64,000 nt of DNA, taken from positions 16,547 to 80,546 of the forward strand of contig UQLN01000002.1 in the NCBI GenBank assembly GCA_900541965.1. Reading direction: 5' to 3'. Origin of the DNA: an uncultured Parabacteroides sp. Its GTDB lineage: Bacteria; Bacteroidota; Bacteroidia; Bacteroidales; Tannerellaceae. This document shows, piece by piece, positions 31,938 through 61,380 of the stretch (position 1 is its first letter; the number at the start of each line of letters is the position of its first letter). A model generated the notes under the pieces. That model was not told where the DNA came from. It saw only the letters and a list, made by a program, of their open reading frames with translations, and did not search any database. The position numbers and the translations under genes are program-made.

Positions 31938-31940
31938 TTC

Positions 31941-32046: not shown

Positions 32047-32061
32047 CTAACCGATTTCGCG

Positions 32062-34443: not shown

Positions 34444-34447
34444 GAAA

Positions 34448-44089: not shown

Positions 44090-44188
44090 TTAAAATCTGA
44101 TAATACATCCTCTATAAATATCATTTATTAGCATATAATATATCACTAAAAAAACAGACAAATAGAAAAACACAAATTAAAACTCATT

Positions 44189-45051: not shown

Positions 45052-47556
45052 TTACTCTTTCCGTTTAACTAAACGAACCACGGCGAAAACAACAGCACCG
45101 GCAAACAGCAACAATATCAATAAACCGCCATAATAGGCTACCGTACTTGCTGCCAAATAACCATCCGGAATAAACTTAAAGACAATCTGATGCTCACCGG
45201 CCGGAACACGCATAGCCCTCAGCGTCCAGTCCGCACGGAAATGAGGTACTTCCTTTCCATCGACATAAGCTTTCCATCCCGGCTGATAATAAATTTCCGA
45301 GAAGACGGCTAATTGCTCATTTGCCGCTTTGCTCTTATAGGTTAATTCTTTCGGCGTATATTTTTCCAGCACAATTGTTGCTGTACTATCTTTTTGAGGG
45401 ACGAAACCTTCTATATCCTTTATGAAACGTTTGTCCACTACGGCCGTCTCCAACGGATTCAAAGTATTTAAAGCAGCCATTTCTTCATCTGCATTCTCCA
45501 CCATCCTGATAGCATCCACAAACCAGGCATTTCCATACGCATACGGATTCTTCAATGCAGGCTGTCCAGCATTATAAATAATATAACGCATATTCAACAT
45601 ATTCAGAGAAGTGGCCGAAGCCAAAGCCGGTAAGATGTCTTCCAAAGACTGGGCTTTTTGGAAAGCACCTATAATCGCACGGTATTCGGGATCCAGACGA
45701 CGATCAATCAGTTCCTGGTAACGTTGAAGTTTTGCCGCATGATAACCGCCAATCGATTTATGGTAATAAGAAGTAAACGTCTCCTGCCAAGGATTATTCA
45801 AATTCAATACACGATAAGAAGGATCTTTATCTTTCAATATATCCTGGTCGGCAACTGATTCTTTGAAGTTTGCCTGCAATTGCTCATTTGTAAAATTAGA
45901 CGCATTCAAATAGCGTTTATCAACACTCCAGAAGTCCGCCAGCATCAATACGATCATACCTATACTTACATAAGTAGCAGCCGTCTGTTTATTTTTTGCT
46001 GTCCAGAAATAGAACAACAAACCGGCACTCAACAAAATAAATACCAGCGAACGGAATGCATCGGCAGAAGCAAGCGAAGCACGGTCCATCAACAATGCCG
46101 GATAAAACCAATCCGGAACCTGATTCTGGAACTGGGCATCATAAGCAGACTGGAAATTAAGCAATAGTGTCGGCATTAACCAGACAACTACACACAAACC
46201 ACCGGTTATCCCTAAAGCCCAAAGGCCTCCTTTTTTCAACAATTTATCATCAACTTTTTCCGACAGGATTTCTTTAAGCCCCCAGATAGCAATCAACGGG
46301 AAGACTAAGCCGGGTATTACCAAAGCCATTTCCGGCGTACGGAATTTATTATACATAGGCAGGTGATGGAACATAAAATCATTGAACAAATCGAAATTAC
46401 GCCCCAACGACAAGAACGCAAAGAACAGTGCACCGGCAAACAGCCACCATTTCATCTGATTTCTCACCACAAACATTCCCAGTACAAACAGGAAACAAAC
46501 AATCGCCCCGAAATAGACCGGACCGGAAGTAAATATCTTGTCTCCCCAATAGGTTGGCGCCTGCAAGGTATTGCCTACCTGCGCCCCATTTTTACGGTAT
46601 TCCTGGTACAGCTTGGACGAATCGTCCAATGTTCCTCCCGAACTACCGCCATAAACATCCGGTATCAGAACCGTAAGCAATTCTTTTACTCCATAACTCC
46701 ATTGGAAGGCATATTCTTTATCCAGGCCGGAAGATTTCTTTTGGGTTCCGAGTGTTTCACCGACAGGTTGAGTTAGTTCCGAAGTACCACGGGTACTTGT
46801 CTTACTCATTTCATAATTCATATACAGGTTCCCGATATTCGGAGTCATAGCCAACAAGACACCTGCCAACAACATGCCTGTTACTTTCAGCAACTCTGGA
46901 TAAAGTTTATCTTTCATCTTTTTCCAAGCAAAACACAGATAGATGAAAACACAGAAAAATGCGAGATAATACGTAATCTGAAGATGTCCTTCCAGAACAG
47001 AAAGCGCCGTACCGATTGTGAAAAGTATGACTCCCCAAAGATATTTCTGCTTAAACAGCAGGAACATGCCTCCTACAGTAAGCGGCATATAAGCTATGGC
47101 ATATGCTTTCGAGACATGTCCCGCCTCGATAATAATAATATTATAAGAAGCTAACGCATAGGCAATCGCACCGGCAATCGCCAACCAGCGGTTTACCCCC
47201 ATGATACACATCAGGATATAAAATGCAATCAATCCGGTAAGCACCATTCCGGCACCCATCGGATCTATACTTTTGATTATATTACCCAGGTAACTTACCG
47301 GATTAGGTTTCATACCGGGCATTGCCACCTGATAAGAAGGCATACCGGAAAACATGCTGCCCAGCCATTCGGAAACTACATGATCCTTATTATAATAGTC
47401 CGTTAATTCTTTTGCCATCCCGACAACTTTCATAGAATCGCCCTGCCTCAACACTTTCCCGTCTATCACAGACGGAGCAAAATAAACAACAACTAATCCT
47501 ATAAACAATAAGACAGCTATCAGATGTCTACCGTATTTCTTCCACAAATCTTGCAT
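45052..47556 (-). CDS. YfhO-family polytopic membrane protein (putative glycosyltransferase-like membrane protein).
   Basis: 834 aa with more than 12 predicted TM helices in the N-terminal two-thirds and a soluble C-terminal region. Overall size and architecture match the bacterial YfhO membrane protein family. Confidence 0.65.
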   Translation of the reverse strand: MQDLWKKYGRHLIAVLLFIGLVVVYFAPSVIDGKVLRQGDSMKVVGMAKELTDYYNKDHVVSEWLGSMFSGMPSYQVAMPGMKPNPVSYLGNIIKSIDPMGAGMVLTGLIAFYILMCIMGVNRWLAIAGAIAYALASYNIIIIEAGHVSKAYAIAYMPLTVGGMFLLFKQKYLWGVILFTIGTALSVLEGHLQITYYLAFFCVFIYLCFAWKKMKDKLYPELLKVTGMLLAGVLLAMTPNIGNLYMNYEMSKTSTRGTSELTQPVGETLGTQKKSSGLDKEYAFQWSYGVKELLTVLIPDVYGGSSGGTLDDSSKLYQEYRKNGAQVGNTLQAPTYWGDKIFTSGPVYFGAIVCFLFVLGMFVVRNQMKWWLFAGALFFAFLSLGRNFDLFNDFMFHHLPMYNKFRTPEMALVIPGLVFPLIAIWGLKEILSEKVDDKLLKKGGLWALGITGGLCVVVWLMPTLLLNFQSAYDAQFQNQVPDWFYPALLMDRASLASADAFRSLVFILLSAGLLFYFWTAKNKQTAATYVSIGMIVLMLADFWSVDKRYLNASNFTNEQLQANFKESVADQDILKDKDPSYRVLNLNNPWQETFTSYYHKSIGGYHAAKLQRYQELIDRRLDPEYRAIIGAFQKAQSLEDILPALASATSLNMLNMRYIIYNAGQPALKNPYAYGNAWFVDAIRMVENADEEMAALNTLNPLETAVVDKRFIKDIEGFVPQKDSTATIVLEKYTPKELTYKSKAANEQLAVFSEIYYQPGWKAYVDGKEVPHFRADWTLRAMRVPAGEHQIVFKFIPDGYLAASTVAYYGGLLILLLFAGAVVFAVVRLVKRKE

Positions 47557-47660
47557 ATTCTAAAAAATTTTATCCTGTGCAAAAGTAGGGGATTTATTTT
47601 AATGCACAGTAAGGCTCTATAAAATAAATACATATATTTGTCTACGAAAAATTAAAAGGA

Positions 47661-48758
47661 ATGAAACAAGTACTTTTCATCAGATATCGTAAATCCGGGA
47701 ATATTGACGCAGGGGGCGAACAAGTAGCCAATGCCAACTATCTCGCCTTATGCCGGATATTCGGGGAAGAAAATGTTACGGTATACCATATACACGAAAA
47801 GCAAAATAAAATAAAAGTCCTGCTGAGCGGTATCTCCATATTAATCAATTTCCTGAAAGGTTATTATTACGGACTTTCCCCAAAGAAAGTCGATAAGATT
47901 GTATCATTAGCGGAAAGCTTCCCCTATGTATTTATAGACAGAAGCATTTTCGGCATCTTGGCTAAAGTCCTCCGGAATAAAGAATACAAAGGAAAAATCA
48001 TTACCTTTTTCCACAATGTAGAACCTGTTTATTTTGAAGCGAAGATAGGGAAGAATAAGCCCTGGTGTTCCATTGTAGTAGATTGTGTAGCCAAAAACGA
48101 CCAGCAGGCTTGTGATTATTCCGATATTATAATTGCTCTGAACAAGCGTGACGAGCAGGAAATAGTACAACGTTACCACCGGATACCGGATATTTTATCC
48201 CCGGTTGTTTTCAAAGATACATATAAGCAGGAAACATATCCGGAAGGCAATACTGATACGGTTCCCGTATGTCTTTTCCTTGGCACTTATTTTCCAATGA
48301 ATGTCCGCGGGATTTTATGGTTCGTACATGAGGTGTTACCCCATGTCAACATACGTCTCCTGATTGTAGGCAAAGGGATGAAAGCCATCCTGCCTATGGT
48401 TGAAAAGTATAACAATATTGAAGTATTCAGTGATGTTCCCGACCTGAAACCCTATATTGAAAAGGCAGACTTCATGCTACTTCCTATCTTCGAAGGCAGC
48501 GGCATGAAGGTGAAAACCTGCGAAGCACTTATGTACGGGAAGAATATCATCGGAACCACCGAAGCGTTCGAAGGATATGAAGTCGCATTTGATAAGGTGG
48601 GAGCATGTTGCAATACGAAAGAAGAGTTTATTGCAACATTGAACCGGGTATCAGCCCACCCGGTTCCAAAGTTCAACAGATATGCAAGAGAAACATTTGT
48701 GGACAATTATTCCGAGGAAGAAAAAATCAAACGGTTCAAGGAAGTATTCCAACTATAA
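47661..48758 (+). CDS. GT-B fold glycosyltransferase (GT4/GT1-like).
   Basis: 365 aa. The C-terminal domain reads LLIVGKGMKAILPMVEKYNNIEVFSDVPDLKPYIEKADFMLLPIFEGSGMKVKTCEALMYGKNIIGT, typical of retaining GT-B enzymes. Confidence 0.6.
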   Translation: MKQVLFIRYRKSGNIDAGGEQVANANYLALCRIFGEENVTVYHIHEKQNKIKVLLSGISILINFLKGYYYGLSPKKVDKIVSLAESFPYVFIDRSIFGILAKVLRNKEYKGKIITFFHNVEPVYFEAKIGKNKPWCSIVVDCVAKNDQQACDYSDIIIALNKRDEQEIVQRYHRIPDILSPVVFKDTYKQETYPEGNTDTVPVCLFLGTYFPMNVRGILWFVHEVLPHVNIRLLIVGKGMKAILPMVEKYNNIEVFSDVPDLKPYIEKADFMLLPIFEGSGMKVKTCEALMYGKNIIGTTEAFEGYEVAFDKVGACCNTKEEFIATLNRVSAHPVPKFNRYARETFVDNYSEEEKIKRFKEVFQL

Positions 48759-50117
48759 CGACTGTTCCTCTTTAATAATTCCTACGCAACAAGCGCCTAT
48801 AATCAGGCAAACTCCGGCTAATACCAACATATCGACTTCCGGAGCTACTGCACCGGGTGTTGTAAACCGGCTCAGAATCATACCGCCGAACGAAGCTGCC
48901 ACTATCTGGGGAATACAAATCGTCCCGTTGAATAACCCGAGATATGTTCCCATATGCCCGAAAGTAAGCGCATTGGTAAGGATGGTAAAAGGCAATGCCA
49001 GCATTGCCGCCCATGCACAACCAATCAATAAGAATGAAGCAAACAATACATACGGATCATGAATGAAAAAAACAGAAATAAATCCGGCACCTCCCAATAA
49101 CAAACTAAACGCATAAGCAAACTTCCGGTTCTTAATCACTGGAATAAGAGCTGCCCAGATAACCGAACCGATTGCCTGTACTGCAAATAAAATTCCCACC
49201 CAGTCGGCAGCACTCTGGTATTGGAGCGATTGGGTATCCAGTACCGTTTTAGATACACCACCGACTATTTTCTCCACAGTTGGCGTGTCGAACACGTTCA
49301 ATGCAACAGTACCGTTAGTATAAGTCCACATAAACATAAAGGCTGCCCAACAAAAAAACTGCACCAGCCCTACCGTCCAAAATACTTTTGGCGCCTTCAC
49401 CAGAAGTTTGAATATATTGACTTTTTCTTTTTTGTTTTCACCGGCAATGCCATGATAAGCGGCATATTCCTTGGGAGGATATTCTTTTACCTTTATAGAA
49501 GTATAAATAACGCATAGAATCAGAATCAGGGCGCCGATATAAAACGAATAAATTACCGAATCGGGAATTACTCCCTTCGAAGCGGTATTACTAATGCCGA
49601 TAGCAGCAAAAATAAACGGGAATAAATAGCCGGCAAGGCTTCCGGCATTACAAAGAAAACTCTGGATAGAATAAGCCAGCCCCTTCTGCTTTTCATTCAC
49701 CATATCGCCAACCATCATCTTAAAAGGTTGCATTGCCACATTAATGGATGTATCGAGGAACATTAAAGAAAACAGGCCGAACAACATGGCTGTACCGACA
49801 GTCATTCCAAAACTCCCGGCATTAGGCAGTAAACACATTACACAGACCGCCCCCAATGCACCGACAAACAAATAAGGTATACGCCGCCCGAACCGTGTCC
49901 AAGTACGGTCGCTCAGCACGCCTATAATGGGCTGGACTATAATTCCGGCCAATGGCGGAAGAATCCAGAAGTAACTTAATTCATGCGGGTCCGCCCCCAA
50001 TGTAGAGAAGATACGGCTGATATTGGCACTTTGCAAAGCATAAGCGATCTGCACGCCAAAGAATCCGAAACTAATATTCCATAGCTGCCAGAATCCCAAA
50101 TCCGGAATTTTTTTCAT
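48753..50117 (-). CDS. MFS transporter of the glycoside-pentoside-hexuronide / SLC45-like type.
   Basis: 454 aa with 12 TM segments. The N-terminal GPH-like motif reads GVLSDRTWTRFGRRIPYLF. Confidence 0.75.
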   Translation of the reverse strand: MKKIPDLGFWQLWNISFGFFGVQIAYALQSANISRIFSTLGADPHELSYFWILPPLAGIIVQPIIGVLSDRTWTRFGRRIPYLFVGALGAVCVMCLLPNAGSFGMTVGTAMLFGLFSLMFLDTSINVAMQPFKMMVGDMVNEKQKGLAYSIQSFLCNAGSLAGYLFPFIFAAIGISNTASKGVIPDSVIYSFYIGALILILCVIYTSIKVKEYPPKEYAAYHGIAGENKKEKVNIFKLLVKAPKVFWTVGLVQFFCWAAFMFMWTYTNGTVALNVFDTPTVEKIVGGVSKTVLDTQSLQYQSAADWVGILFAVQAIGSVIWAALIPVIKNRKFAYAFSLLLGGAGFISVFFIHDPYVLFASFLLIGCAWAAMLALPFTILTNALTFGHMGTYLGLFNGTICIPQIVAASFGGMILSRFTTPGAVAPEVDMLVLAGVCLIIGACCVGIIKEEQSL

Positions 50118-50378
50118 GGTAAATTGAGTTAGTGGTTTAAAGCCTCAAAATTAAAACGATTCTGTCGAAGAATTTAGACTATTACTGAAAATCCAACTAA
50201 AATAAAGGCCTTTTCCCTGTACCTCATCTTTCCTTATTACAGCATCCACCTTATTTATCAGAAGGGACAATCAAAGTCTACATTTTTATTCTTTCTGGGT
50301 TTTAGAAAAAATATATAAACAAAAAAGCCCCGGTTCCATCAGAAACCAGAGCTAACCTTTACATTTATACAAGGTATC

Positions 50379-51326
50379 TTACCAAATTCTCCAATCCGGG
50401 ATATCAATAGAATAAGCCTTTTCGGGAGACATCCGCATACCCAGATACATGCCCGGATTAGAACTGAATGTTCCGATAAACAGTTCCGCTTCCGCCAATA
50501 CATCCATCGAAGCAAACAGTTTGATATAACGGTTTTTCTTTACTTCCGGCGCTTCATGCTTGAATGTATTATGGAAATACCCCCTTTCCTCTTTTCCACA
50601 AAATGTCCGGAACGACCAGGATGGATAATTTTTCTCTAATTCCTCAATCACCGCATAATCGTCTGTAAGGACAAATGCGGAACGGATATCCGACAGTTGT
50701 TCCGCTTTGCCTATATATTGCCTGCAACCGAGGATTTCAGCTTCGCTAAATTTATCACCTCCCCGTATATGAAAACCAATATATCGATCCGGTAGATTTA
50801 CGGACTGTTTATACCGTTGTACTTCCTCTGCCGTCTTTCCATTATACACCCATGTCATTTCTATCAGTTTACGGCAGATGGCACGCAAATCACCTTTCAA
50901 TCCCAACTCAGAGAAGTTATATTCCGAAGGATGGGCTTGCGAACGCAAAGCATCCCACAAATCAAAAGTGGTAAGCACACGGGGGTTAACAGACCGGAAA
51001 ACAGCAGTCAACCATGTATCGGCTTTCCTCAGCAAGGAGTTTTTAAAGCGATGGTTCGGACGCCGGTTAAAATAAGCATGCAGGAAATTACCTCCCTCCT
51101 CACAAAAAGGGGAAAAATAATCATTCCAGCCCTCTTTATATTTAAAATTAGCATCCTTGGAATAGATGGAAAACCGTATCTTCTTGTCCAGGCAATACAG
51201 AATAGCAAGAATCATATTATTGTATTCCGAAAAAAAACCGGAATCACCTCCCAGATGATAAACAAAACGGGGACTACTCCGGTCATTTACCCGGTGGTAT
51301 AAATCTAACAATGTCTTTTCCGCCAT
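50379..51326 (-). CDS. Hypothetical protein with a fucosyltransferase-superfamily-like motif (possible GT11/GT23-related glycosyltransferase).
   Basis: 315 aa. GFHIRGGDKF resembles the HxRRGDY motif I of alpha1,2- / alpha1,6- / O-fucosyltransferases. It is embedded in the glycosyltransferase locus. No other recognisable motif. Confidence 0.4.
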   Translation of the reverse strand: MAEKTLLDLYHRVNDRSSPRFVYHLGGDSGFFSEYNNMILAILYCLDKKIRFSIYSKDANFKYKEGWNDYFSPFCEEGGNFLHAYFNRRPNHRFKNSLLRKADTWLTAVFRSVNPRVLTTFDLWDALRSQAHPSEYNFSELGLKGDLRAICRKLIEMTWVYNGKTAEEVQRYKQSVNLPDRYIGFHIRGGDKFSEAEILGCRQYIGKAEQLSDIRSAFVLTDDYAVIEELEKNYPSWSFRTFCGKEERGYFHNTFKHEAPEVKKNRYIKLFASMDVLAEAELFIGTFSSNPGMYLGMRMSPEKAYSIDIPDWRIW

Positions 51327-51327
51327 A

Positions 51328-52266
51328 CTATTTCAAATTTCTCAAGATAGGGAGAGCCGCCAGTTTGGCAAAACGGGCTTCCTTATATTTTTTCATTACG
51401 GCATAACCGAACACAGTACGTCTTACTGCCTGTTCAAACGGTTGGTCGAATATATTGCACAAGAAAGCAACGAGCTCCTGCATCCAGTCCTTTTCCTGCT
51501 GCTCTTTCGTCTGCCAGGGAAGGGATAACTTCTGTAAATAGGCCTCATCATCATTATCCAGACGGATGATTTCCTCCACAGCCTCATCCATATTATTGAA
51601 TAACTGAATATTTATGATAGATTCCGGATTAAAATCCGAATGTACATTCGGATTTCCCCAATATATTGGGAGTGAGTTTACCACCATCGGCTCCATCAAC
51701 TTTTCCGTAGTGTATCCGGACAAAGCACTGTTCTCAAAAGCAATTGTAAACTTATAATCCCGGATAAACGTCATTTTATCAGAAACAGGTCCACCTACAT
51801 TATTCAGCAAACGTCCTCCCGAATCCACCTTCTTGTATTCGGACAACCGGTGGAAAAATTGTTCGCGAAGCGGTGTAGAATACATGCTGTTGGAATATAC
51901 AAAATTACAGAATTTACGATTTACCAGCGATTTATCCACCTGTTTCTTTCCTAACCGCTCGTATCCCTTATAAAATAAATACAAGGGAAACCGGAGATAA
52001 CGGTCTTCAAAAGTAATATGCTGAAAACCCATGCCATAATCACAGAAATTAAAATCTGGAACATCATTCTCACCGGTGAAATAAATCTTTATGCAATCTT
52101 TATAGTCCAGATGGCTGAATCCGAAAGTAGAATAAAAAAGATAGTCCGGATTAGTATCAATAACAACATCATAGTAACCGGATAATGTATTAACAATCAA
52201 ATTATCCTGAGGATCAAAGCCTTGCCAGAAATCAACGAAATTTATCTTTATCTTTTTCATACGCAT
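51328..52266 (-). CDS. GT10-family alpha-(1,3)-fucosyltransferase.
   Basis: KFTIAFENSALSGYTTEKLMEP matches the GT10 FxFENSxxxxYxTEK signature. The start is at MRMKKIKINF, 2 nt after the upstream gene's stop. Confidence 0.75.
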   Translation of the reverse strand: MRMKKIKINFVDFWQGFDPQDNLIVNTLSGYYDVVIDTNPDYLFYSTFGFSHLDYKDCIKIYFTGENDVPDFNFCDYGMGFQHITFEDRYLRFPLYLFYKGYERLGKKQVDKSLVNRKFCNFVYSNSMYSTPLREQFFHRLSEYKKVDSGGRLLNNVGGPVSDKMTFIRDYKFTIAFENSALSGYTTEKLMEPMVVNSLPIYWGNPNVHSDFNPESIINIQLFNNMDEAVEEIIRLDNDDEAYLQKLSLPWQTKEQQEKDWMQELVAFLCNIFDQPFEQAVRRTVFGYAVMKKYKEARFAKLAALPILRNLK

Positions 52267-52268
52267 GC

Positions 52269-53243
52269 TCAAAGTGTTGCCTTCACATATAAACAAGCCA
52301 AACGAACGGGCAATTTATACGCTAATAGTTTCAAATTAGACATAAACGGATACTTACGCCAAGAAAAACTGTTGTAACCTTTAAATATCTGATTTACTCT
52401 TTGTATTCTTTCCCGGATAACAGAAGTCTTCACATGATTACGAAGCAATTCCTTAAAGAAATAAATCCGCTGGTTCGCCAAATAATCGAACAAGAGAGGA
52501 GTCAACGGCATATTCCTGTTTTTCATCTCTTTCACAGTTTCACGGAAAACAATTTCCAAGCTGTCAAAATTCCTGTCACTCATTTTCTGGGTGATAGAAC
52601 CCGGACGTACCCGGTATTTATATGTAATCTTTTTAGTGACAAGCAGTTCTGATGCCCTGGCAGCCAAACAGAAAGACCATAGGATGTCTTCATGCAGGAT
52701 TCCTTCATAAAACCAACAGGACTGTTCGGTAAACATCCTTCTCCTTACCAGTTTATTCCATGCCATCCCATGCCACAACCGGGCAAAAAGTTTATCTGCA
52801 ATATCCTGGTCTGCCAGACATGTTCCGTCCATTAATTCGGTCTCCGGATATTTCAGCCGGTCATTCGAGCCTAACAACTCGTATTCACCAATCACAAAGT
52901 CGGCATATATCCCATTCATAGCTTTCACTAATATCTCGATGGCATCCGAAGGCAACATGTCATCACTATCCAAAAAAAACAGAAACTCTCCGATGGAATT
53001 ACGTATACCGGTATTTCTTGCAGCAGACAGGCCGCGGTTCTCATCGTGTGATAAAAAGTGAACTTTATCTTTACAAGGATGTGCATCTACAATCTTCCGG
53101 GCCTTTGTCATGCTGTCATCCGGAGAGGCATCGTCAACCAACAAGATTTCCAACTCTTCATACGTCTGGTTTAACGCAGAAAGTAAACATTCCTCTATAT
53201 AGTCGGAAACGTTGTATACAGGTATGACAATAGATACTTTCAT
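52269..53243 (-). CDS. GT2-family glycosyltransferase.
   Basis: MKVSIVIPVYNVSDYIEECLLSALNQTYEELEILLVDDASPDDS is the classic GT2 N-terminus with a DxD motif. Confidence 0.8.
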   Translation of the reverse strand: MKVSIVIPVYNVSDYIEECLLSALNQTYEELEILLVDDASPDDSMTKARKIVDAHPCKDKVHFLSHDENRGLSAARNTGIRNSIGEFLFFLDSDDMLPSDAIEILVKAMNGIYADFVIGEYELLGSNDRLKYPETELMDGTCLADQDIADKLFARLWHGMAWNKLVRRRMFTEQSCWFYEGILHEDILWSFCLAARASELLVTKKITYKYRVRPGSITQKMSDRNFDSLEIVFRETVKEMKNRNMPLTPLLFDYLANQRIYFFKELLRNHVKTSVIRERIQRVNQIFKGYNSFSWRKYPFMSNLKLLAYKLPVRLACLYVKATL

Positions 53244-54139
53244 ATTTTTATCCAGCTATCTGGTATTAAATCGGGAGTAGTTTCCGTATTCAAAAAGAGC
53301 GAAGGGGCAATTACCACCTTCTTTTTATTGGGGTTCAACCAGGCACCCCACCAACTAAACGTACTGTTTGCTATAATATTATGCTTACAACAAGACATCA
53401 AATACATATCCTGCCACGAATCGATTCCCTTATTCCAATCGACATAAACAGGAGAAGGTATATCGAGATGTTCTTTTACCCATTTCATATCATCGGAAAA
53501 AACAAAAAAAGTTGCTTCCGGAACTTTTTTTCCAAGCATGGCTATTGCTCGTTTATAATAATCTATCGTACAAATATTTCCATAAAGGTGTTTATACTTG
53601 TCAGACAAATAATCACCTCTTCGAATATGGATGGAAACACTATCTGTTTTTTGTATCTGCACCAATAAATCGGCAGTTAACTTGGATATCTCCAAGTTAA
53701 CCTGATATTGCCGTAATATCAAATCTTTTACGTTATAAAAATATTTCTCACTCTGCCAGAAACCAAATGTCAGGGTCAAACCGGACTGTTCTTCCAGATA
53801 AGCCTTATCAAACACCCCTGCCTGCTGCTCTTGTACAATCTTTACACCCAACAGACGCAATAAGGACAAAAAGGTCCGGGCTGCATATTTTATCATTCCC
53901 CTATCTTTGAAAAGCAACAACTTACGAACTACCCGGACAAGAAACTCATAATATCTGTTTCTCTCCCCCAAAGAGATACCGAACAGACGTTCTAATTCCA
54001 ACCCGTTGTGTGTTGCTTCCCTACGGATAGAATAATCACTTAAATATAATTTCTTATTTACCGCCGCCCGCTTGCTTACGTAAAATGCGTACTCAAACAT
54101 TTGGTTGCCCAAACCTCCTGAAAGAACTATAATTTCCAT
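53240..54139 (-). CDS. GT11-family alpha-(1,2)-fucosyltransferase.
   Basis: It carries the GT11 motifs LSGGLGNQMFEYAF and SIHIRRGDY, then FFVFSDDMKWVKEH and DMYLMSCCKHNIIANSTFSWWGAWLN. This is the same motif set as Helicobacter FutC and B. fragilis fucosyltransferases. Confidence 0.85.
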   Translation of the reverse strand: MEIIVLSGGLGNQMFEYAFYVSKRAAVNKKLYLSDYSIRREATHNGLELERLFGISLGERNRYYEFLVRVVRKLLLFKDRGMIKYAARTFLSLLRLLGVKIVQEQQAGVFDKAYLEEQSGLTLTFGFWQSEKYFYNVKDLILRQYQVNLEISKLTADLLVQIQKTDSVSIHIRRGDYLSDKYKHLYGNICTIDYYKRAIAMLGKKVPEATFFVFSDDMKWVKEHLDIPSPVYVDWNKGIDSWQDMYLMSCCKHNIIANSTFSWWGAWLNPNKKKVVIAPSLFLNTETTPDLIPDSWIKI

Positions 54140-54143
54140 ACGT

Positions 54144-55037
54144 TTATACCAATGCCCTCTTCAACTGTTTTAAATACCGGATTATATTTTGTTTGAGTTT
54201 TAACAAATAAATAATACCCGTTTCCATACTACTCAAGGTTGCATCAATACCTGCCTGCATAATATCCTCATTGGTGAAAATATTGTACAAGGCAAATTTA
54301 TCCAGCAAGACGATATAATCCCTCACATTTCTTTCTAAAGATAATTTCTTAAACATATACAAGTATTCTCCAATAACCAACTTGCTATTTTCAATACAAT
54401 CATTCGTTATCTGGAACTCACTAAGTCCTACATCTATCAAGGGTTCGTTAATCACCGTGAAATGCTTATTCATCCTCAGCATCCGGATATAAAACTCGGT
54501 ATCCACCAACCATATCAGACGTTCATCGAAGTAAAGCCCCTGATTGTTCCTGAAAATAGTCACACTGGGAGCTCCTATGCAATTCTTATCATACAATATT
54601 TCCGGAATATAGGGCAGCTTTGATACCTTTTTTGTCAATATCGGCCTGTTTATTACTTTGTCTTTTCCTACTTGCCTGGATGCAGAAAAGGCAAACAGAG
54701 AGGATGGATTTTCTTCCAATGCCTGCACAAAGCGGGATAACGCATCCGGAGATGAAAACCAGTCATCATGATGCATAATCTTAATATATTTCCCTTTTGC
54801 AAGAGATATCGCTTTATTCCAATTGGCAGGACTACCCAACGGCTGTTCATTCTTAACATAAACAATCCGCTCGTCCTTTTCACTCAACGGCTTCAGTTCA
54901 TCTGTAGGAGAATCGTCAGTGATAACAATTTCATACTGCTGAAAGGACTGTTGAAGAATCGAATCCAGACACCTCTCTAAAAAATCGGCACGCTTATATG
55001 CCGGGATACAAATACTGACTATTATTTCTTGTTCCAT
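54144..55037 (-). CDS. GT2-family glycosyltransferase.
   Basis: IVSICIPAYKRADFLERCLDSILQQSFQQYEIVITDDSPTD. Confidence 0.8.
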   Translation of the reverse strand: MEQEIIVSICIPAYKRADFLERCLDSILQQSFQQYEIVITDDSPTDELKPLSEKDERIVYVKNEQPLGSPANWNKAISLAKGKYIKIMHHDDWFSSPDALSRFVQALEENPSSLFAFSASRQVGKDKVINRPILTKKVSKLPYIPEILYDKNCIGAPSVTIFRNNQGLYFDERLIWLVDTEFYIRMLRMNKHFTVINEPLIDVGLSEFQITNDCIENSKLVIGEYLYMFKKLSLERNVRDYIVLLDKFALYNIFTNEDIMQAGIDATLSSMETGIIYLLKLKQNIIRYLKQLKRALV

Positions 55038-55051
55038 TTATATACGACTGG

Positions 55052-56491
55052 CTATTGTTTCTTTTTCAGAAGAAAAGACAACACTTCCCTGAATATGACA
55101 GCAGACGAAAACCACATTGCCGCCACATAAAATACGGCAACCAACAATACTTTCGCTATCAGCTTTATATATAGATTTTCTATCTGCTTTGTTATCAACC
55201 AGGCTATTACTATGCTAACAAAGACAATAAGCAAATAAGGCACCGTATCTTTCAGGAAATTAAAGAATGACAGCGGAATCAGTTTGCTTACCGAAATATG
55301 CCAAATCAAAAGAATCAGAAAAGATACAATCAGGTTTGCCATCGCTATCCAGTACAGACCGTAAGGACAGGCTAGGAATGTAACCGCTATCTGTATAATC
55401 GAACTGACCAGGGTACACCAGAAATAGAAGTTTGAACGCCCATGCGCAATAATTATCTGGATATAAAGGGAGGAAAACAGATAGACACATCCCCACATGC
55501 AATACATCTGCAATATCGGGACAGCAGGTAAAAAGTTACTGTTTATAATTGTAATAAAATCGCGGCTGATAAAAGCCAGCCCCAACAATGCCGGAAAAGA
55601 AATAAAAGAGATAAAACGTACCATCTTCCTCAACATATGGGATTGACGCTCTTTTTCAGACTGGACTTGCACAAACACCGGTTGTGCCACACTGTAAATC
55701 ATTCCATTAATAACCTGGGTTCCCATTCCTGCCCATTTCGTTCCCTGCGAATAGAAGCCCACATACGCTTTCGTATAGAACTTACCGAGCAATACAGAGA
55801 ATATATTTATCTGAACCTGACTCACAATGGAAGATACCAGCATCTTAAAACTAAATCCGAACATCTCCTTTACAGGAGTAAAATCTATCGAAAAGCCAGG
55901 TCGCCAAGGGGAGAAATACCAACGGAGAAGAGTTCCCAAAGTCGAAGCAGCCAAAGTCTGTATCGCCAAAGCCCAATAACCATAACCGTTTAATACCATA
56001 TAGATACCGATAACACCGGATATAGCTGTAGCAAAGATATCGACCTTTGCCCTTTCCTTTACCATCAACTTTTTAAATAAGACGGCATTATGGGCTATCC
56101 CCATACTTCCTACGACAATGGAAAGGAATAATACCCGGGAAAGGGGTATCAGGGCTGGTTCCCTATAAAATCCGGCAATCAGGGGGGCACAGAAATATAA
56201 AACAACATAGATACTGCTACCCACAATCAGGTTAAACCAGAAAACAGCATTGTAATCATTATCCTTAAATACCGGGCGGTTCGTCAGTGCGGCAATAAAG
56301 CCACTCTCCTGTATAGTACTTGCAATCGCGATAAAAATAGCAAGCATACCTACCAGCCCGTAATCATCTTCCGTCAGGTTTTTCAGGAGAATTATTCCTA
56401 TTAGGACACCCAGCACTTGTTGAACACCATTGCTGATACCACCCCAGAAAAGCCCTTTTGCCGTTTTCTCTTTTAGAGTCTGTTCTGCCAT
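55052..56491 (-). CDS. wzx: Wzx-type oligosaccharide flippase (MOP superfamily polysaccharide biosynthesis protein).
   Basis: 479 aa with ~12-14 TM helices. The N-terminus KGLFWGGISNGVQQVLGVLIGIILLKNLTEDDYGLVGMLAIF is typical of Wzx/RfbX. Confidence 0.85.
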   Translation of the reverse strand: MAEQTLKEKTAKGLFWGGISNGVQQVLGVLIGIILLKNLTEDDYGLVGMLAIFIAIASTIQESGFIAALTNRPVFKDNDYNAVFWFNLIVGSSIYVVLYFCAPLIAGFYREPALIPLSRVLFLSIVVGSMGIAHNAVLFKKLMVKERAKVDIFATAISGVIGIYMVLNGYGYWALAIQTLAASTLGTLLRWYFSPWRPGFSIDFTPVKEMFGFSFKMLVSSIVSQVQINIFSVLLGKFYTKAYVGFYSQGTKWAGMGTQVINGMIYSVAQPVFVQVQSEKERQSHMLRKMVRFISFISFPALLGLAFISRDFITIINSNFLPAVPILQMYCMWGCVYLFSSLYIQIIIAHGRSNFYFWCTLVSSIIQIAVTFLACPYGLYWIAMANLIVSFLILLIWHISVSKLIPLSFFNFLKDTVPYLLIVFVSIVIAWLITKQIENLYIKLIAKVLLVAVFYVAAMWFSSAVIFREVLSFLLKKKQ

Positions 56492-56497
56492 AAAGCA

Positions 56498-57382
56498 TTA
56501 TTTAAACCGCATGACGGCAGGACGCATTTCTTTTTCAACATACAAATATCCGGGGCATAGGGTCGTTTCTAATTTATGTTCTCGTAATATGCCTTGTATA
56601 ACAGGTACATCATCAGATAAGTGATAGACACATACCGAACCGGATATATTCTTTGCCTTACTTAATAAACAGGAAGCTCCCCGCAAAGCCTTACGTTCAT
56701 AACCTTCTATATCCATCTTCAAAAATAAATTGTCTGAAGGTTTATCTTTAAAATAGTCGTCCAATGTTACGTTATTTTCATCATTCATATCGCTAACGTA
56801 TTTACGGACAATCGTCACTTTCTCTTTCCAAGGGGCAAATGTAGCTTGTAAAGCTTCAATCCATCCCTCATTGCATTCGAACAGATAAGCATGGTCAATC
56901 TCTTCGATAGTATCGAGGGTAAAAATAGCTTCCGCACAGCCTATGTCCAGCAAGGTCTTTCCCTTCAATTCCTGATAAGATTCCACATAGCGATGGGCAC
57001 AGCGGCTGTCTTGCTCCATTAATAGCTCTTTATAAGAACCGGATACGCGATGAAACATATCACGCCTGAAATAAAGCCTCTTCCCTTTATGATACACATA
57101 TGGCAATCCGTTTTCCGCATCTACAGCCACATCAATTTGCAAACGATCATATTCTTTCTTCCACAAATAAGGGAAAGGCGTCGGGCCTGTTTTTCCTAAT
57201 ATCCAGAATGCCTGCTCCTTTTCTGTCTCCGGTTTGATAACAGAATAATATAAATAATAGCCTTTACATCTTAACCAATCCCGGGTTCTCCGGTATGCAG
57301 ACAGGAAATCACCCAGAAAAGCATTATAAATGGATTGCCGGACTTGCTCAGAGACAAGTGTTCTGTATAATCGGGTTATCAT
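56498..57382 (-). CDS. FkbM-family SAM-dependent methyltransferase.
   Basis: LLDIGCAEAIFTLD is a SAM-binding loop. FLKMDIEGYERKALRGA is the FkbM-family signature. Confidence 0.7.
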   Translation of the reverse strand: MITRLYRTLVSEQVRQSIYNAFLGDFLSAYRRTRDWLRCKGYYLYYSVIKPETEKEQAFWILGKTGPTPFPYLWKKEYDRLQIDVAVDAENGLPYVYHKGKRLYFRRDMFHRVSGSYKELLMEQDSRCAHRYVESYQELKGKTLLDIGCAEAIFTLDTIEEIDHAYLFECNEGWIEALQATFAPWKEKVTIVRKYVSDMNDENNVTLDDYFKDKPSDNLFLKMDIEGYERKALRGASCLLSKAKNISGSVCVYHLSDDVPVIQGILREHKLETTLCPGYLYVEKEMRPAVMRFK

Positions 57383-57393
57383 AGTTTATTTTT

Positions 57394-58707
57394 TTATCTG
57401 CCGATGCAATGATAAATAAAACCATTCTCTTCCAGCTCGGCAGCATCATAAATATTGCGTCCGTCAAGGATTACCGGGGTAGCCATCAGTTTCTTTATTG
57501 CCGACCAGGAAGGCAGGCGAAATTCTTTCCATTCCGTAACCAGAAGCAAAGCATCGGCATCCACAACCGTGTCATATATATCTTTAGCATAATGAACGCT
57601 ATCCCCCAAAAGACGACGCGTTTCGTCCATTGCCACCGGGTCGTATACATAGACGTTACAACCGGCAGCCAACAACCTGTTTATAAGTACTAATGAAGGG
57701 GCTTCACGCATATCGTCCGTCTCCGGTTTAAAGGCAAGTCCCCAGATTGCAACCCGCCTGTGTTGTAAATCCCCTTTGAAATAATTATTCAACTTATGAA
57801 ACAGGATTGATTTCTGTTTCTCGTTTACATCCTCAACAGCTTCCAAGATACGCATATCATATGCATATTGTTTTGCAGTCTTGATAAGCGCTTTTATATC
57901 TTTCGGGAAACAAGAACCTCCATATCCGCAACCGGCATACAGGAAACGATTACCTATACGGGCATCCGAACCGATTCCCTTACGAACCATATTGACATCG
58001 GCGCCAACAATCTCACACAGGTTGGCAATATCATTCATAAAACTGATACGGGTGGCAAGCATTGCATTAGCCGCATATTTAGTCATTTCGGCAGAAGGCA
58101 CATCCATAAAAATAACACGGAAATTATTTAACAGGAAAGGCCGGTACAAACGCGTCATCAATTCTTTCGCCCTATCGGATTCCACTCCGACAACCACCCG
58201 GTCCGGACTCATAAAGTCCTTGATGGCTGCTCCTTCTTTCAAAAATTCCGGATTGGATGCCACATCAAACTCAATCTTCAGATTCCGTTTATCCAACTCT
58301 TCCTGAATAACCTGGCGAACCTTTCGAGCCGTACCTACCGGCACCGTACTTTTATTTACAATAAGAAGGTGTTGTTTCATATGCTGTCCGACCATACGCG
58401 CTACATCCAGCACATATGTAAGATCAGCACTGCCGTCTTCGCCGGGAGGAGTACCAACAGCACAAAACAGGACCTGAACCTTATCCAGACATTCCGTCAA
58501 ATTCGTGGTAAAATGCAAACGACCTGCTTGCTGGTTACGCCGTACCATTTCTTCAAGTCCGGGCTCATAGATTGGAATAATACCTTGTTTCAGATTCTCT
58601 ATTTTTTCCGTGTTTACATCCACACAAAAAACATCTGTTCCCATTTCTGCAAAACAGGTTCCTGTCACAAGCCCTACATAGCCAGTCCCTACTATCGCTA
58701 CTCTCAT
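57394..58707 (-). CDS. ugd: UDP-glucose 6-dehydrogenase.
   Basis: 437 aa. It has the MRVAIVGTGYVGLVTG Rossmann motif and the catalytic region GGSCFPKD. The full length is UDP-glucose/GDP-mannose dehydrogenase-like. Confidence 0.9.
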   Translation of the reverse strand: MRVAIVGTGYVGLVTGTCFAEMGTDVFCVDVNTEKIENLKQGIIPIYEPGLEEMVRRNQQAGRLHFTTNLTECLDKVQVLFCAVGTPPGEDGSADLTYVLDVARMVGQHMKQHLLIVNKSTVPVGTARKVRQVIQEELDKRNLKIEFDVASNPEFLKEGAAIKDFMSPDRVVVGVESDRAKELMTRLYRPFLLNNFRVIFMDVPSAEMTKYAANAMLATRISFMNDIANLCEIVGADVNMVRKGIGSDARIGNRFLYAGCGYGGSCFPKDIKALIKTAKQYAYDMRILEAVEDVNEKQKSILFHKLNNYFKGDLQHRRVAIWGLAFKPETDDMREAPSLVLINRLLAAGCNVYVYDPVAMDETRRLLGDSVHYAKDIYDTVVDADALLLVTEWKEFRLPSWSAIKKLMATPVILDGRNIYDAAELEENGFIYHCIGR

Positions 58708-59111
58708 AATTATATTTCCCTTTGAAAGGTCCTCCTGTTTTTAATTGCCATCCAGATACATAAAGGTTCGTCACTCCCGATATGGGAATAACAAACATAT
58801 GACAAAGATAACACGTTTATATATATCTAAAGGAGTTGAACCTGAAAAACCACAATAAACCAGTTCTATAGCAAATAAAAACAGGGAGGAAGAACAGAAC
58901 CTGCCTGTCTTCCTCCCTTTCCATAGTTAAGGTCCACTGTAAATTGCAATTTTACAAGTAGAGTTTCTTGTGTGCTTTTATTAATGCCTACCCTCTATTT
59001 CCCTCTTTCTGTTTTTATAAACGGACTTGAATATATATTATTATATATGCCGTAAAAAAAATTAAAGACACAAATCTAAACAAGCTCTATAGACAGGACA
59101 CTTTTTCCTAA

Positions 59112-59169
59112 TTCATAGTTATGGTTTTTGAAAATCATAACTATGAATTCAGAAAACCATAACTATGAA
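59112..59169. repeat. Second copy of the CATAGTTATG x3 element at 22-bp spacing. Here one unit is forward and two are inverted (CATAACTATG).
   Basis: Units start at 59114 (CATAGTTATG), 59136 (CATAACTATG) and 59158 (CATAACTATG). The spacers are GTTTTTGAAAAT / AATTCAGAAAAC. It lies between the metG 3' end and the ugd start. Confidence 0.8.
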
Positions 59170-59197
59170 GAATAAGACTGCTCTTTCCACCTGATTG

Positions 59198-59246
59198 TAT
59201 ACGAAGCGACCCCAAAAAGCTATGCAATATTCATTTGCATAACTTT
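59198..59246. terminator. Hairpin terminator downstream of metG (stem GACCCCAAAAAG / CTTTTTGGGGTC).
   Basis: A 12-bp perfect stem with internal A/T runs and a 22-nt loop. It sits 44 nt from the metG stop. Confidence 0.55.
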
Positions 59247-59289
59247 TTGGGGTCACTCTCTGGCTATCTTAGCCTATATATAAGTAACC

Positions 59290-61329
59290 TTATTTTACTT
59301 CGCTTCCCGGTTTTACTTCTTTTTGCGGAGTGATGACAGACAGTTTTCCGTCAAAATCCTCAGCAGAAAGAATCATACCTTCGGATACGATGCCTTTTAA
59401 TTTACGGGGAGCCAGATTTGCTACAAAACAAACCTGTTTACCTACCAGTTCTTCCGGGGCATAATGCTGGGCAATTCCCGAAACAATCGTACGTTTTTCC
59501 AGGCCGTCGTCAATACGGAATTGAAGCAGTTTATCCGCTTTTGGAACTTTTGTACATTCAAGAATGGTTCCTACACGGATATCCAATTTCATAAAGTCAT
59601 CGAACTCAATGTTTTCACGGATTGGTTTTGCCTTGTAATTTGCTTCTTCATTTGCTTTCTTGGTATCGAGAAGTTTCTGTACTTGTGCCTCAATTACGCT
59701 ATCTTCCATTTTTTCAAACAAAAGTTCGGATTTACCTAACTGATGGCCGGCTTCCAGCAAATCGGTAGAGCCTAAACGATCCCAACCCAGCGGCTGTACA
59801 TTCAGCATCTTGTTCAAACGTTCCATGCTGAAAGGCAGGAACGGTTCAAAAGCAATAGCCAGGTTTGCCGTAATCTGCAAAGCGATATTCATGATAGTTG
59901 CCACGCGCGACATATCCGTTTTAGCCAGTTTCCAAGGTTCCGTGTCAGCAAGGTATTTATTACCGATACGTGCCAGATTCATCGCTTCTTTTTGTGCATC
60001 ACGGAAATGGTATGCATCGAGCAGGCGCTCCACATCTTCCTTCACATTTGCAAAATCGGTCATAGTCTGACGGTCATAGTCGGTCAACTCTCCAGCCGCA
60101 GGTACTTTGCCATCAAAATATTTTTCGGTAAGAACAAGGGCACGGTTCACGAAGTTACCCAGAATAGCAACCAGCTCGTTATTGTTGCGTGCCTGGAAAT
60201 CTTTCCAGGTAAAGTCGTTATCTTTTGTTTCCGGGGCATTAGCAGTTAGGACATAACGCAATACATCCTGCTTACCCGGCATATCTACCAGATATTCATT
60301 CAACCATACAGCCCAGTTACGGGATGTGGAGATTTTATCACCTTCCAGGTTAAGGAACTCATTTGCAGGTACATTTTCCGGAAGGTTATAGGAACCTTCC
60401 GCCTTCAGCATCGATGGAAATACGATGCAGTGGAATACGATATTATCTTTACCGATAAAATGAACCATCTTTGTTTCCGGATCTTTCCACCACGTTTCCC
60501 AAGAATCGGGAAGCAATTCTTTTGTATTGGAGATATATCCGATAGGAGCATCAAACCAGACATAGAGCACTTTACCTTCGGCGCCTTCCACCGGCACAGG
60601 TATGCCCCAGTCCAGGTCGCGACTTACTGCGCGTGGCTGAAGTCCCATATCCAGCCAGCTTTTACACTGTCCGTATACATTCGGTTTCCATTCTTTATGA
60701 CCTTCCAGAATCCATTCGCGCAAGAAAGGTTCCCATTTGTCAAGAGGCAGGTACCAGTGTTTGGTTTCCTTCATCACGGGCTTGCTTCCACTGATTGCCG
60801 ACTTCGGGTCGATCAGGTCTGTCGGACTAAGCGAGGTACCGCAGGCTTCACACTGATCGCCATAGGCTTTCTCGTTACCGCAATGAGGGCATGTTCCGGT
60901 TATATAACGGTCGGCAAGGAATTGTTTAGCTTCCTCATCGTAATATTGTTCGCTTGTTTTCTCAATAAATTCGCCTTTATCATATAAGGTACGGAAGAAA
61001 TCCGAAGCCATCTGATGGTGCGTAGCTGAAGTAGTGCGGGAATAGATATCGAAAGTTATCCCGAAATCTTCAAAAGATTTCTTGATAATGCCATGATACC
61101 GGTCCACTACATCCTGTGGAGTTATCCCTTCTTTCTTTGCTCTCAGAGTAATAGGTACCCCATGCTCATCCGAGCCGCCAATCATCAGTACTTCTTCCCC
61201 TTTCAACCGAAGATAACGCGCATAAATATCAGCAGGCACATATACCCCCGCCAAATGACCAATATGCACCGGTCCGTTAGCATACGGCAACGCTGTTGTT
61301 ATCAGCGTTCTTTTAAATCGCTTTTCCAT
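59290..61329 (-). CDS. metG: Methionine--tRNA ligase.
   Basis: The start is at [25 protein letters not shown] (HIGH motif). It carries the KMSKS-equivalent, Zn-knuckle cysteines ([18 protein letters not shown]) and a C-terminal tRNA-binding EMAP-like domain. Confidence 0.95.
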
Positions 61330-61380
61330 ACCTTTTGTTCTATTTTTGAGGCACAAAGGTAAGGAATAATTTGAAATGTA

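Follow-up and report, generated by a model that had tools for sequence, protein, structure and literature searches.

An eight-gene glycan operon

The window analysed here, a 64-kb stretch of DNA from a human-gut Parabacteroides, contains a minus-strand operon of eight genes: ugd, a gene for an FkbM-like methyltransferase, wzx, genes for a GT2, a GT11, a second GT2 and a GT10 glycosyltransferase, and a gene for a protein of 315 aa. Beyond the operon lie a gene for an MFS transporter, a plus-strand GT1 gene and yfhO. An earlier note on this DNA had named the glycan genes at 45052-58707, and every one of them is present with its coordinates right and a significant Pfam family match. The note had also counted a glycosyltransferase and YfhO with the minus-strand run; both genes exist, but the co-directional, tightly packed unit extends only from ugd to the 315-aa gene, and the GT1 lies outside it on the opposite strand. 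A Pfam scan of the ORFs between 45 and 59 kb found no Wzy, Wzz, UpxY/NusG or initiating phosphoglycosyltransferase family, in agreement with the note on the first three, and apart from Wzx, the MFS transporter and YfhO the region encodes no membrane proteins. The hallmarks of Upx-type capsule loci in Bacteroides (UpxY/UpxZ, Wzy and an initiating transferase) were likewise not found between 45 and 62 kb.

The first gene, ugd (57394..58707, minus strand), encodes a UDP-glucose 6-dehydrogenase with three UDPG_MGDP_dh domains in Pfam, which would supply UDP-GlcA; among NCBIfam models it matches the TuaD-type at 557 bits and the NDP-sugar dehydrogenase at 463 bits. It is followed by a probable FkbM-family methyltransferase gene (56498..57382, minus strand), whose product may O-methylate sugars. 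Its match to Pfam Methyltransf_21 is weak (26.6 bits, cutoff 22.7), and at 30 bits it falls under the cutoff of the NCBIfam fkbM_fam model; it is, however, 66% identical to the protein encoded before wzx in the P. gordonii-type lfg locus (L090). The flippase gene wzx (55052..56491, minus strand; Polysacc_synt_3, 229 bits) has as its best model NCBIfam NF058658, 'O-glycosylation flippase', with 599.7 bits over positions 1-477 of 478, the next flippase model reaching 182 bits. This score is below the NCBI cutoff of 720 bits, as are those of the Wzx proteins of canonical Parabacteroides lfg loci (663-693 bits). The Wzx proteins of other loci that lack GtfE score 619-680 bits; the comparison covered Wzx proteins of canonical lfg and of GtfE-less loci.

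The glycosyltransferase genes follow on the same strand. GT2a (54144..55037; Pfam Glycos_transf_2, E 1e-25) precedes GT11 (53240..54139), a predicted alpha-1,2-fucosyltransferase that matches Glyco_transf_11 with E 2.5e-37 (129 bits) and carries an HIRRGDY motif at residues 171-177; the copy in strain APC149 is named alpha-1,2-fucosyltransferase by NCBI. GT2b (52269..53243; Glycos_transf_2, E 3.5e-34) opens a recurrent module of GT2b, GT10 and a FUT8-like gene, with orthologs of 39-47% identity beside GT10 in five other lineages (L008, L010, L012, L021 and L029). GT10 (51328..52296) is a predicted alpha-1,3/4-fucosyltransferase with matches to Pfam FucT_N (E 1e-34) and Glyco_transf_10 (E 9e-21) and to the Helicobacter pylori FucT structure 2NZW (E 4e-40). 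It carries the motif FENSALSGYTTEK, and its likely start at 52260 or 52266 gives a protein of 310-312 aa.

The last gene of the operon (50379..51326) encodes the 315-aa protein, a predicted fucosyltransferase of FUT8/NodZ-like (GT23-like) type. Its family match to FUT8 is weak, and a profile search of the PDB returned FUT8 at E 2e-5. Its AF2 model has a pLDDT of 89.4, and a Foldseek search with this model placed human FUT8 first (E 1.9e-12, TM 0.66), followed by POFUT1/2, NodZ and AtFUT1. The protein contains an HIRGGDK motif and has 409 homologs. Its gene is the most variable of the operon within the species, with 88.9% nucleotide identity in L002 between flanks that are 100% identical. Membership of the BF4306 family of GT2 proteins of ~255 aa was considered for it and rejected in favour of a FUT8/NodZ-like GT-B assignment. 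Judged by these sequence signatures and the structural model, the operon is predicted to encode three fucosyltransferases (GT11, GT10 and FUT8/NodZ-like), all with their signatures intact.

The metG boundary and the yfhO side

Upstream of the operon on the same strand lies metG (59290..61356; Pfam tRNA-synt_1g, E 1e-163), encoding a methionyl-tRNA synthetase of 679 aa in the ATG-start form called elsewhere. It is 88-95% identical to the metG genes that head the lfg loci of other Parabacteroides, and is separated from the ugd start at 58707 by a spacer of 582 bp (58708..59289, read on the minus strand) with inverted repeats (I1-I3). Co-transcription of the operon with metG is doubtful because this spacer contains two long and strong hairpins (59205-59257 and 59103-69). 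The element TAtcTTTG at 58810-58803 fits the Bacteroidetes -7 promoter motif, stands 96 nt ahead of the ATG of ugd and may be a promoter. At the other end, a terminator-like hairpin with a 12-bp stem, followed by TTTTTTGTTTA (50326..50353, minus strand), places hairpin and T-run 26-53 nt past the stop codon of the 315-aa gene. Just past this hairpin, APC149 and a second strain (L007) carry a SusC/SusD insertion of ~9.4 kb, which in APC149 comprises four genes.

Between the 315-aa gene and GT1, the MFS transporter gene overlooked in the earlier inventory occupies 48753..50117 (minus strand; Pfam MFS_1 and MFS_2). No homolog of it was found in the related loci compared, the gene being seen in this species only, and it probably stands outside the glycan pathway. 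The GT1/GT4-type glycosyltransferase gene (47661..48758, plus strand; Pfam Glyco_trans_1_4, E 6e-14) diverges from yfhO and fills the slot that gtfL and gtfE hold in other Parabacteroides. In L008, L092 and L093, genes of 70-80% identity lie at the corresponding place and face the same way. Three related lineages share this arrangement, in which GtfE is lacking and a conserved GT1 stands beside yfhO.

The yfhO gene (45052..47556, minus strand) encodes a YfhO-family GT-C membrane glycosyltransferase that passes the Pfam gathering score (PF09586, 40.5 bits, cutoff 28.5) and matches the NCBIfam PgfM2 model weakly. Its AF2 model (pLDDT 77) has a GT-C fold; the Foldseek matches of highest probability are the GT-C enzymes AftD, ArnT, PglB, STT3 and Pmt, at low TM values (~0.3). 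Rather than an operon accessory, YfhO is a conserved neighbour of lfg loci, and it has been predicted to be the missing O-oligosaccharyltransferase of the system (July 2026 preprint, 10.64898/2026.07.27.740950); the protein encoded here is a candidate for that role. On the far flank of yfhO (30519..36802, plus strand) lie genes for SahH, a methyltransferase, HddA-like, GmhA, HddC-like and GmhB proteins and a GT4 (Pfam; NCBIfam for GmhA and GmhB). The HddA-like, GmhA, HddC-like and GmhB genes belong to the GDP-heptose pathway, and the block from sahH through the GDP-heptose genes to GT4 is also found beside yfhO in L008, L013, L090 and L093.

Relation to lfg loci and other known systems

In Bacteroides, metG marks the 5′ start of lfg loci; wzx and variable glycosyltransferase genes follow, and a conserved pair of glycosyltransferase genes closes the locus (PMC8698959, PMC12871550). 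The adjacency of metG and lfg that the earlier note had stated is therefore correct. Its assignment of the locus to the lfg type holds for the metG adjacency, for the NF058658-type Wzx and for the slot between metG and yfhO, but not for the terminal pair: orthologs of BF4305/GtfL (GT-B, ~420 aa, the penultimate gene of lfg loci) and BF4306/GtfE (a GT2-type L-fucosyltransferase of ~255 aa, the last gene) are both absent from the whole 64-kb window. When BF4306, Tanf_01305, Phep_4048 and the L070 ortholog were compared with the window by tblastn, only the N-terminus of GT2b was matched, at 26-31% identity overall and 28-31% for the first three proteins, over ~120-140 aa, whereas true GtfE orthologs are 46-58% identical among themselves. 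GT2b was rejected as a BF4306 ortholog, its identity being only 28% over 140 aa. The 420-aa GtfL-like protein of L070 has no tblastn match in the window at E 1e-3, while it matches L013, L054, L063, L065, L073, L077 and L090. Among the members seen of ten GtfE protein clusters, none came from APC149.

The closest counterparts are the canonical lfg loci of other Parabacteroides, such as those of Parabacteroides sp. ZJ-118 (L070), the P. gordonii type (L090) and P. faecis (L088), which occupy the same interval (metG ... yfhO - GT - sahH - AMP-ligase - BipA). The outer flanks are collinear with these genomes (BipA, HTH-cupin, AMP-ligase, sahH, GT4). Wzx is 47-52% identical to its canonical counterparts, an FkbM-like gene also precedes wzx in L090, and several of these loci include a FUT8-like gene. 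In L013, L070 and L073 the order is metG (88-95% identity), wzx (47-50%), a GtfL-like gene, the GtfE ortholog and yfhO (59-62%), and the GtfE orthologs of these three are 53-58% identical to BF4306/Tanf_01305. The GtfE ortholog directly abuts yfhO in seven lineages (L013, L070, L073, L087, P. faecis, L090 and L091). The canonical loci end with a 420-aa GtfL-like protein and a GtfE of 252-258 aa next to yfhO, whereas a terminator, the MFS gene and an opposite-facing GT1 are found here.

The comparison with BF4298-BF4306 of B. fragilis, which the earlier note had proposed, bears out the position downstream of metG on the same strand and the NF058658-like Wzx, but not the BF4305 and BF4306 orthologs. 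Both loci have a run of variable glycosyltransferase genes after wzx in which Wzy, Wzz and the Upx regulators are lacking (here by Pfam, for every ORF of the interval), and fucose and GlcA are predicted in both products. The locus described here starts with ugd and a methyltransferase gene, after a structured spacer of 582 bp behind metG, and has GT10, GT11 and FUT8-like fucosyltransferases in place of a GT2-type one. Linkage to yfhO is direct here and unmentioned in published descriptions of Bacteroides lfg, with which the comparison was made. The O-glycosylation cluster of Tannerella forsythia, also of the Tannerellaceae, is likewise bounded by wzx (Tanf_01180 wzx to Tanf_01305 gtfE) and combines methyltransferase with glycosyltransferase genes, and its O-glycan contains fucose and GlcA, as would be expected here. 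It differs in its gtfL-gtfE boundary and its genes for nonulosonic acid synthesis, and metG adjacency is unmentioned in the descriptions consulted. YfhO-family GT-C enzymes that use lipid-linked sugar donors on the external side of the membrane are also known from Firmicutes (Bacillus subtilis YfhO-CsbB, Streptococcus mutans PgfM2). In Bacteroidota, by contrast, YfhO is linked to lfg genes and to either sahH or luxS, with a predicted action on protein sequons, and neither a GT2 nor a GtrA partner was identified next to it.

Interpretation of the locus

We consider it reasonably probable, at about 60%, that the metG-yfhO interval is a variant lfg-type locus for a species-specific outer glycan of general protein O-glycosylation, its variant features being the canonical GtfL/GtfE pair missing from the window, the conserved GT1 beside yfhO in its place and the three predicted fucosyltransferases. 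This reading draws on the adjacency and strand of metG, the O-glycosylation-type Wzx, the synteny with canonical Parabacteroides lfg, the lack of Wzy, Wzz, UpxY and an initiating transferase, the three intact fucosyltransferase signatures and the GT-C fold of YfhO. Against it stand the absence of both conserved terminal genes from the 64-kb window, the Wzx score under 720 bits and the spacer hairpins. The first and last of these points would also fit an operon for some other Wzx-dependent, non-polymerised glycan (for instance a glycolipid, a lone O-unit or the outer core of a lipooligosaccharide), with the true outer-O-glycan genes, including gtfL and gtfE, lying elsewhere in the genome. GtfE is reported to be near-universal, with one ortholog per genome, and its gene can lie apart from other glycosylation genes, which are dispersed in Porphyromonas gingivalis; a MAG of this species has GT11 homologs labelled as O-antigen enzymes (WbnK). 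Such a reading is nevertheless rather unlikely: the flippase is of the O-glycosylation type, the operon sits exactly in the lfg slot of seven other Parabacteroides lineages, neither a WaaL-type ligase gene nor one for the lipid A-core was found nearby, and the GtfE-less layout in three related lineages points to a stable clade-level architecture and not to a stray locus.

It is improbable that the glycan bears a host-mimicking determinant similar to Lewis x/y, as made with GT10 and GT11 in H. pylori and as the earlier note had proposed. The two families, intact and in one operon, do carry their catalytic motifs, including the alpha-1,2-fucosyltransferase motif in GT11, and GT10 is clearly related to the H. 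pylori alpha-1,3-fucosyltransferase; a Lewis-like epitope is a speculation drawn from their presence. The acceptor does not follow from the enzyme family, however, and no LacNAc-forming Gal/GlcNAc transferase of the GT25 or GT31 type was identified, the two GT2 enzymes having no assignable specificity. The GT2b-GT10-FUT8-like module also occurs in Dysgonomonadaceae from termite guts and from the environment (L012, L021 and L029), where mimicry of human antigens would be unexpected, a distinct GT10 gene is present in another Parabacteroides lfg (L091), and in known Bacteroidota O-glycans fucose sits on Glc, Gal or GlcA. The H. pylori enzymes (FutA/FutB of GT10, FutC of GT11) act on LacNAc acceptors of the LPS O-antigen and are encoded by scattered, phase-variable genes, in contrast to the single O-glycosylation-type operon seen here, and GT10 (310-322 aa) is much shorter than the FucT constructs from H. 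pylori deposited in the PDB (371 and 420 residues). A capsular or exopolysaccharide locus is very improbable indeed: wzx, ugd and several glycosyltransferases are common in capsule loci too, but polymerase, chain-length regulator, export proteins, UpxY/UpxZ and initiating transferase were not found, Wzx is of the O-glycosylation type, and the chromosomal position beside housekeeping genes is conserved.

For the variant lfg-type locus, we infer the following substrates, steps and order of assembly. Ugd would provide UDP-GlcA, and the two GT2 enzymes together with GT11, GT10 and the FUT8/NodZ-like protein, all three predicted to depend on GDP-fucose, would assemble a short oligosaccharide rich in fucose, carried on undecaprenyl and facing the cytoplasm. 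The FkbM-like enzyme would probably add an O-methyl group to a sugar; GlcA, fucose and O-methyl groups recur in known Bacteroidota O-glycans. The lfg-type Wzx would then move the glycan to the periplasm. There it would be attached to the core glycan that exported proteins carry on Ser/Thr of the motif D(S/T)(A/I/L/V/M/T), and the GT-C neighbour YfhO is the foremost candidate for carrying out a transfer step.

Gene order and transcription signals

The operon lies between metG (59290-61356) and yfhO (45052-47556) and, like both of these genes, is on the minus strand. In the ORF map, a 582-bp spacer separates metG from ugd (57394-58707), and the ORF map and Pfam searches together identify these genes as well as wzx (55052-56491), a GT2 glycosyltransferase gene (GT2a, 54144-55037), GT11 (53240-54139), a second GT2 gene (GT2b, 52269-53243) and GT10 (51328-52296). 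Two further members have weak Pfam matches: an FkbM-family methyltransferase gene (56498-57382) between ugd and wzx, and a terminal gene for a 315-aa protein that matches FUT8 (50379-51326; the FUT8-like gene). The compact unit extends from ugd through the FUT8-like gene. It is followed by an MFS transporter gene (48753-50117, minus strand) and, beside yfhO, by a GT1-type glycosyltransferase gene (GT1, 47661-48758) on the plus strand (both ORF map and Pfam). The gene list of the earlier note, with its coordinates, was borne out. Its minus-strand run holds from ugd to the FUT8-like gene; GT1, which it had included, is on the opposite strand, and the MFS transporter was missing from it. In line with it, the ORF and Pfam scans detected no Wzy, Wzz or UpxY family, and they also detected no initiating transferase family.

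Directly 3' of the stop codon of the FUT8-like gene is a hairpin with a 12-bp stem and a T-run. The metG-ugd spacer contains two long hairpins and, 96 nt 5' of the ugd start, a match to the Bacteroidetes -7 promoter motif (TAtcTTTG), so that the operon may have its own promoter instead of depending on read-through from metG. A sigma-70 promoter scan, which is ill-suited to Bacteroidetes, found 48 candidates against 45 expected from shuffles, i.e. not above expectation, and an Rfam search of the whole window gave no match. A 17-nt element, yTCATAGTTATGrTTTT, occurs six times in the window against 0.11 matches expected by chance: three copies closely follow the bipA stop, spaced 22 nt apart (25596-25656), and three more, in the form of 26-28-nt inverted repeats, lie about 120 nt 3' of the metG stop (59103-59169). 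It may serve as a terminator or an operator, or be REP-like.

Exact copies of the window proteins are present in many human-gut metagenomes. Parabacteroides sp. APC149_11_2_Y6, whose complete genome is CP173709.1, encodes closely related versions (92-99% protein identity). Among species representatives, the nearest one is L007, a MAG of Parabacteroides whose metG is 98% identical.

The lfg slot and its conserved terminal pair

General protein O-glycosylation is essential for the fitness of gut Bacteroidales. In all Bacteroides lfg loci analysed, metG comes first and wzx lies within, and the 3' end consists of two glycosyltransferases conserved across species, the final one being the BF4306/GtfE fucosyltransferase (PMC8698959, PMC12871550, PMC6120980). 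The statement in the earlier note that lfg regions adjoin metG is right, because these published definitions put metG at the lfg start. As of 2025, the oligosaccharyltransferase, ligase and core-glycan genes of the system were still unidentified.

Related loci were gathered with the FUT8-like protein and later with YfhO homologues as anchors, and the window proteins were mapped onto them by tblastn. Three Parabacteroides lineages (L013, L070 and L073) have metG, wzx, a GtfL-like gene, a GtfE ortholog and yfhO within one interval, and in four further lineages (L087, P. faecis L088/L089, the P. gordonii-type L090 and L091) the GtfE ortholog immediately adjoins yfhO. Past yfhO come a glycosyltransferase gene, sometimes methyltransferase and GDP-heptose genes, and then sahH, AMP-ligase, HTH-cupin and BipA genes, in the same order as in the window. 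Judged by this metG-to-yfhO synteny and identical flank order, the window operon occupies the position that the lfg has in Parabacteroides. The Wzx of the operon matches NF058658, the NCBIfam O-glycosylation flippase model, over its full length with 599.7 bits (runner-up model, 182 bits); Wzx proteins of canonical loci score 663-693 bits.

The terminal pair is a different matter. BF4306, Tanf_01305 and Phep_4048, taken from the PMC8698959 supplement (Figure S3), are GT2 proteins of about 255 aa with 47-58% mutual identity. Across the whole window their matches (28-31% identity) are confined to the GT-A domain at the N terminus of GT2b, and a GtfL-like 420-aa protein from a canonical Parabacteroides locus found no match in the window. 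Neither gtfL nor gtfE is found in Parabacteroides sp. Marseille-P3160 (L008), L092 or L093 either, and these three share the same GT1 (70-80% identical), transcribed divergently from yfhO (68-78% identical). GT10 and the FUT8-like gene recur in L008 and L092, and neither is present in L093. The GT2b-GT10-FUT8-like module also accompanies an lfg-type wzx in Massilibacteroides and Dysgonomonadaceae (L010, L012, L021, L029), with GT11 in addition in L010 and L012. As far as gene content tells, the layout without GtfE is no isolated case and is a clade-level variant. Strict replacement of gtfL-gtfE by GT2b-GT10 was rejected, as L091 has both a GT10-family gene and gtfE, and L093 has neither gtfE nor any fucosyltransferase. 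We propose only tentatively that the clade (the window species, Marseille-P3160 and two metagenomic lineages) might have swapped the phylum-wide GtfL/GtfE pair beside yfhO for the divergently transcribed GT1, with GT10, the FUT8-like protein and GT11 taking over fucosylation in the window species.

Between sahH and yfhO, 32062-36802 encodes a methyltransferase, all enzymes of the GDP-D-glycero-D-manno-heptose pathway (HddA-like kinase, GmhA, HddC-like transferase and GmhB) and a GT4; this block also lies beside yfhO in L008, L013, L090 and L093. A 7.2-kb block (37513-44710) between GT4 and yfhO, encoding SusC, SusD and three proteins without a family match, has a GC content down to 0.30 at 42-44 kb; it looks like an insertion, because in other Parabacteroides little or nothing lies between GT4 and yfhO. 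In APC149 (L086 10958-19669) and L007, an insertion of about 9.4 kb lies exactly past the operon-end hairpin, between the FUT8-like and MFS genes. Its four opposite-strand genes (SusC, SusD, DUF6057 and PD40-like) part the operon from MFS-GT1-yfhO. Mobile-element-type genes occur in or beside the lfg end near yfhO in L087 (3060-5707; DnaB/primase) and L093 (5965-8636; HU-HIG and a VapE-like protein). The junction between the lfg end and yfhO seems to be a hot spot for insertions.

Three predicted fucosyltransferases and the glycan they may build

The FUT8-like protein matches FUT8 in a profile search (E 2e-5), and its AlphaFold model (pLDDT 89.4) has human FUT8 as its nearest structure (E 1.9e-12), followed by POFUT1/2, NodZ and AtFUT1; it carries an HIRGGDK motif. 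The earlier note's 'FucT-like hypothetical' is of another family than BF4306, and its reading as a BF4306 ortholog was rejected, the BF4306 family being GT2 proteins of about 255 aa without an ortholog in the window. GT11 carries an HIRRGDY motif (a PDB sequence search with GT11 gave no match), and GT10 carries FENSALSGYTTEK and matches H. pylori FucT with E 4e-40. From this family evidence and the terminal-gene test, the operon therefore holds three predicted fucosyltransferases of three families, without the lfg-defining one. At the nucleotide level the FUT8-like gene (50379-51326) is 88.9% identical in the related locus L002, where the genes on either side are 100% identical, 89.5% in L007 and 93.2% in APC149. 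It is a within-species hot spot, which suggests allele replacement by recombination. The GT10 ortholog of the related metagenomic lineage L092 (2-797) is broken up into ORFs of 143 and 135 aa; it is a pseudogene with a frameshift, or else the assembly is in error.

The best explanation, to which we give a probability of roughly 0.6, is that the operon is a variant lfg. Its product would be an oligosaccharide that contains GlcA, is methylated and carries several fucoses; assembled on undecaprenyl phosphate, it would be flipped by the lfg-type Wzx for attachment to core-glycosylated proteins. The lfg-type reading in the earlier note is partly supported: the metG adjacency, the slot and the Wzx type speak for it, and the lack of the GtfL/GtfE pair in the window speaks against it. 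On gene content the operon does not count as a canonical lfg, since a search of the window for the two defining genes found neither; it most likely works like one. The main rival, rather unlikely, is that the operon makes some other short glycan on a lipid carrier, with gtfE and gtfL elsewhere in the genome. Dispersed gtfE and gtfL in P. gingivalis speak for such an arrangement; among homologues of the L070 GtfE ortholog, seen in ten clusters at partial coverage, there was no member from APC149, of the same species. A Lewis-like epitope on the glycan, as the earlier note had predicted, is improbable, its basis being family names alone.

YfhO and protein O-glycosylation

A July 2026 preprint (10.64898/2026.07.27.740950) predicts YfhO to be the missing O-oligosaccharyltransferase and places it next to sahH or luxS; the terms 'lfg' and 'metG' do not occur in its text. 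A PDB sequence search with the YfhO profile gave no match. The highest-probability matches of the YfhO model (pLDDT 77) are the GT-C enzymes AftD, ArnT, PglB, STT3 and Pmt, which agrees with an oligosaccharyltransferase and equally fits a ligase or a monosaccharide transferase. YfhO divergence does not follow locus type, the identity matrix having no clear split. In P. faecis (L088 and L089, 10001-15059), yfhO occurs after the GtfE ortholog as a tandem pair of paralogs (838 and 841 aa), and these two GT-C enzymes could provide the two missing activities, oligosaccharyltransferase and outer-glycan ligase. The conserved yfhO neighbours (glycosyltransferase, methyltransferase and heptose genes) could be candidates for the core-glycan machinery.

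The lfg end and yfhO are tightly linked in Tannerellaceae and Dysgonomonadaceae. This linkage would argue independently, on genomic grounds, for the handling of the O-glycan by YfhO, either as oligosaccharyltransferase or as outer-glycan ligase, and its recurrence adds support from gene order to the very recent prediction of an oligosaccharyltransferase that had long been sought. A natural lfg variant without the 'invariant' GtfL/GtfE would test the universality of that step; if the proposed swap has taken place, the 'universal' step of GtfE can be dispensed with or replaced. A glycan carrying as many as three fucoses, present on hundreds of proteins of the surface and periplasm, could affect host lectin recognition and strain-level antigenic variation.
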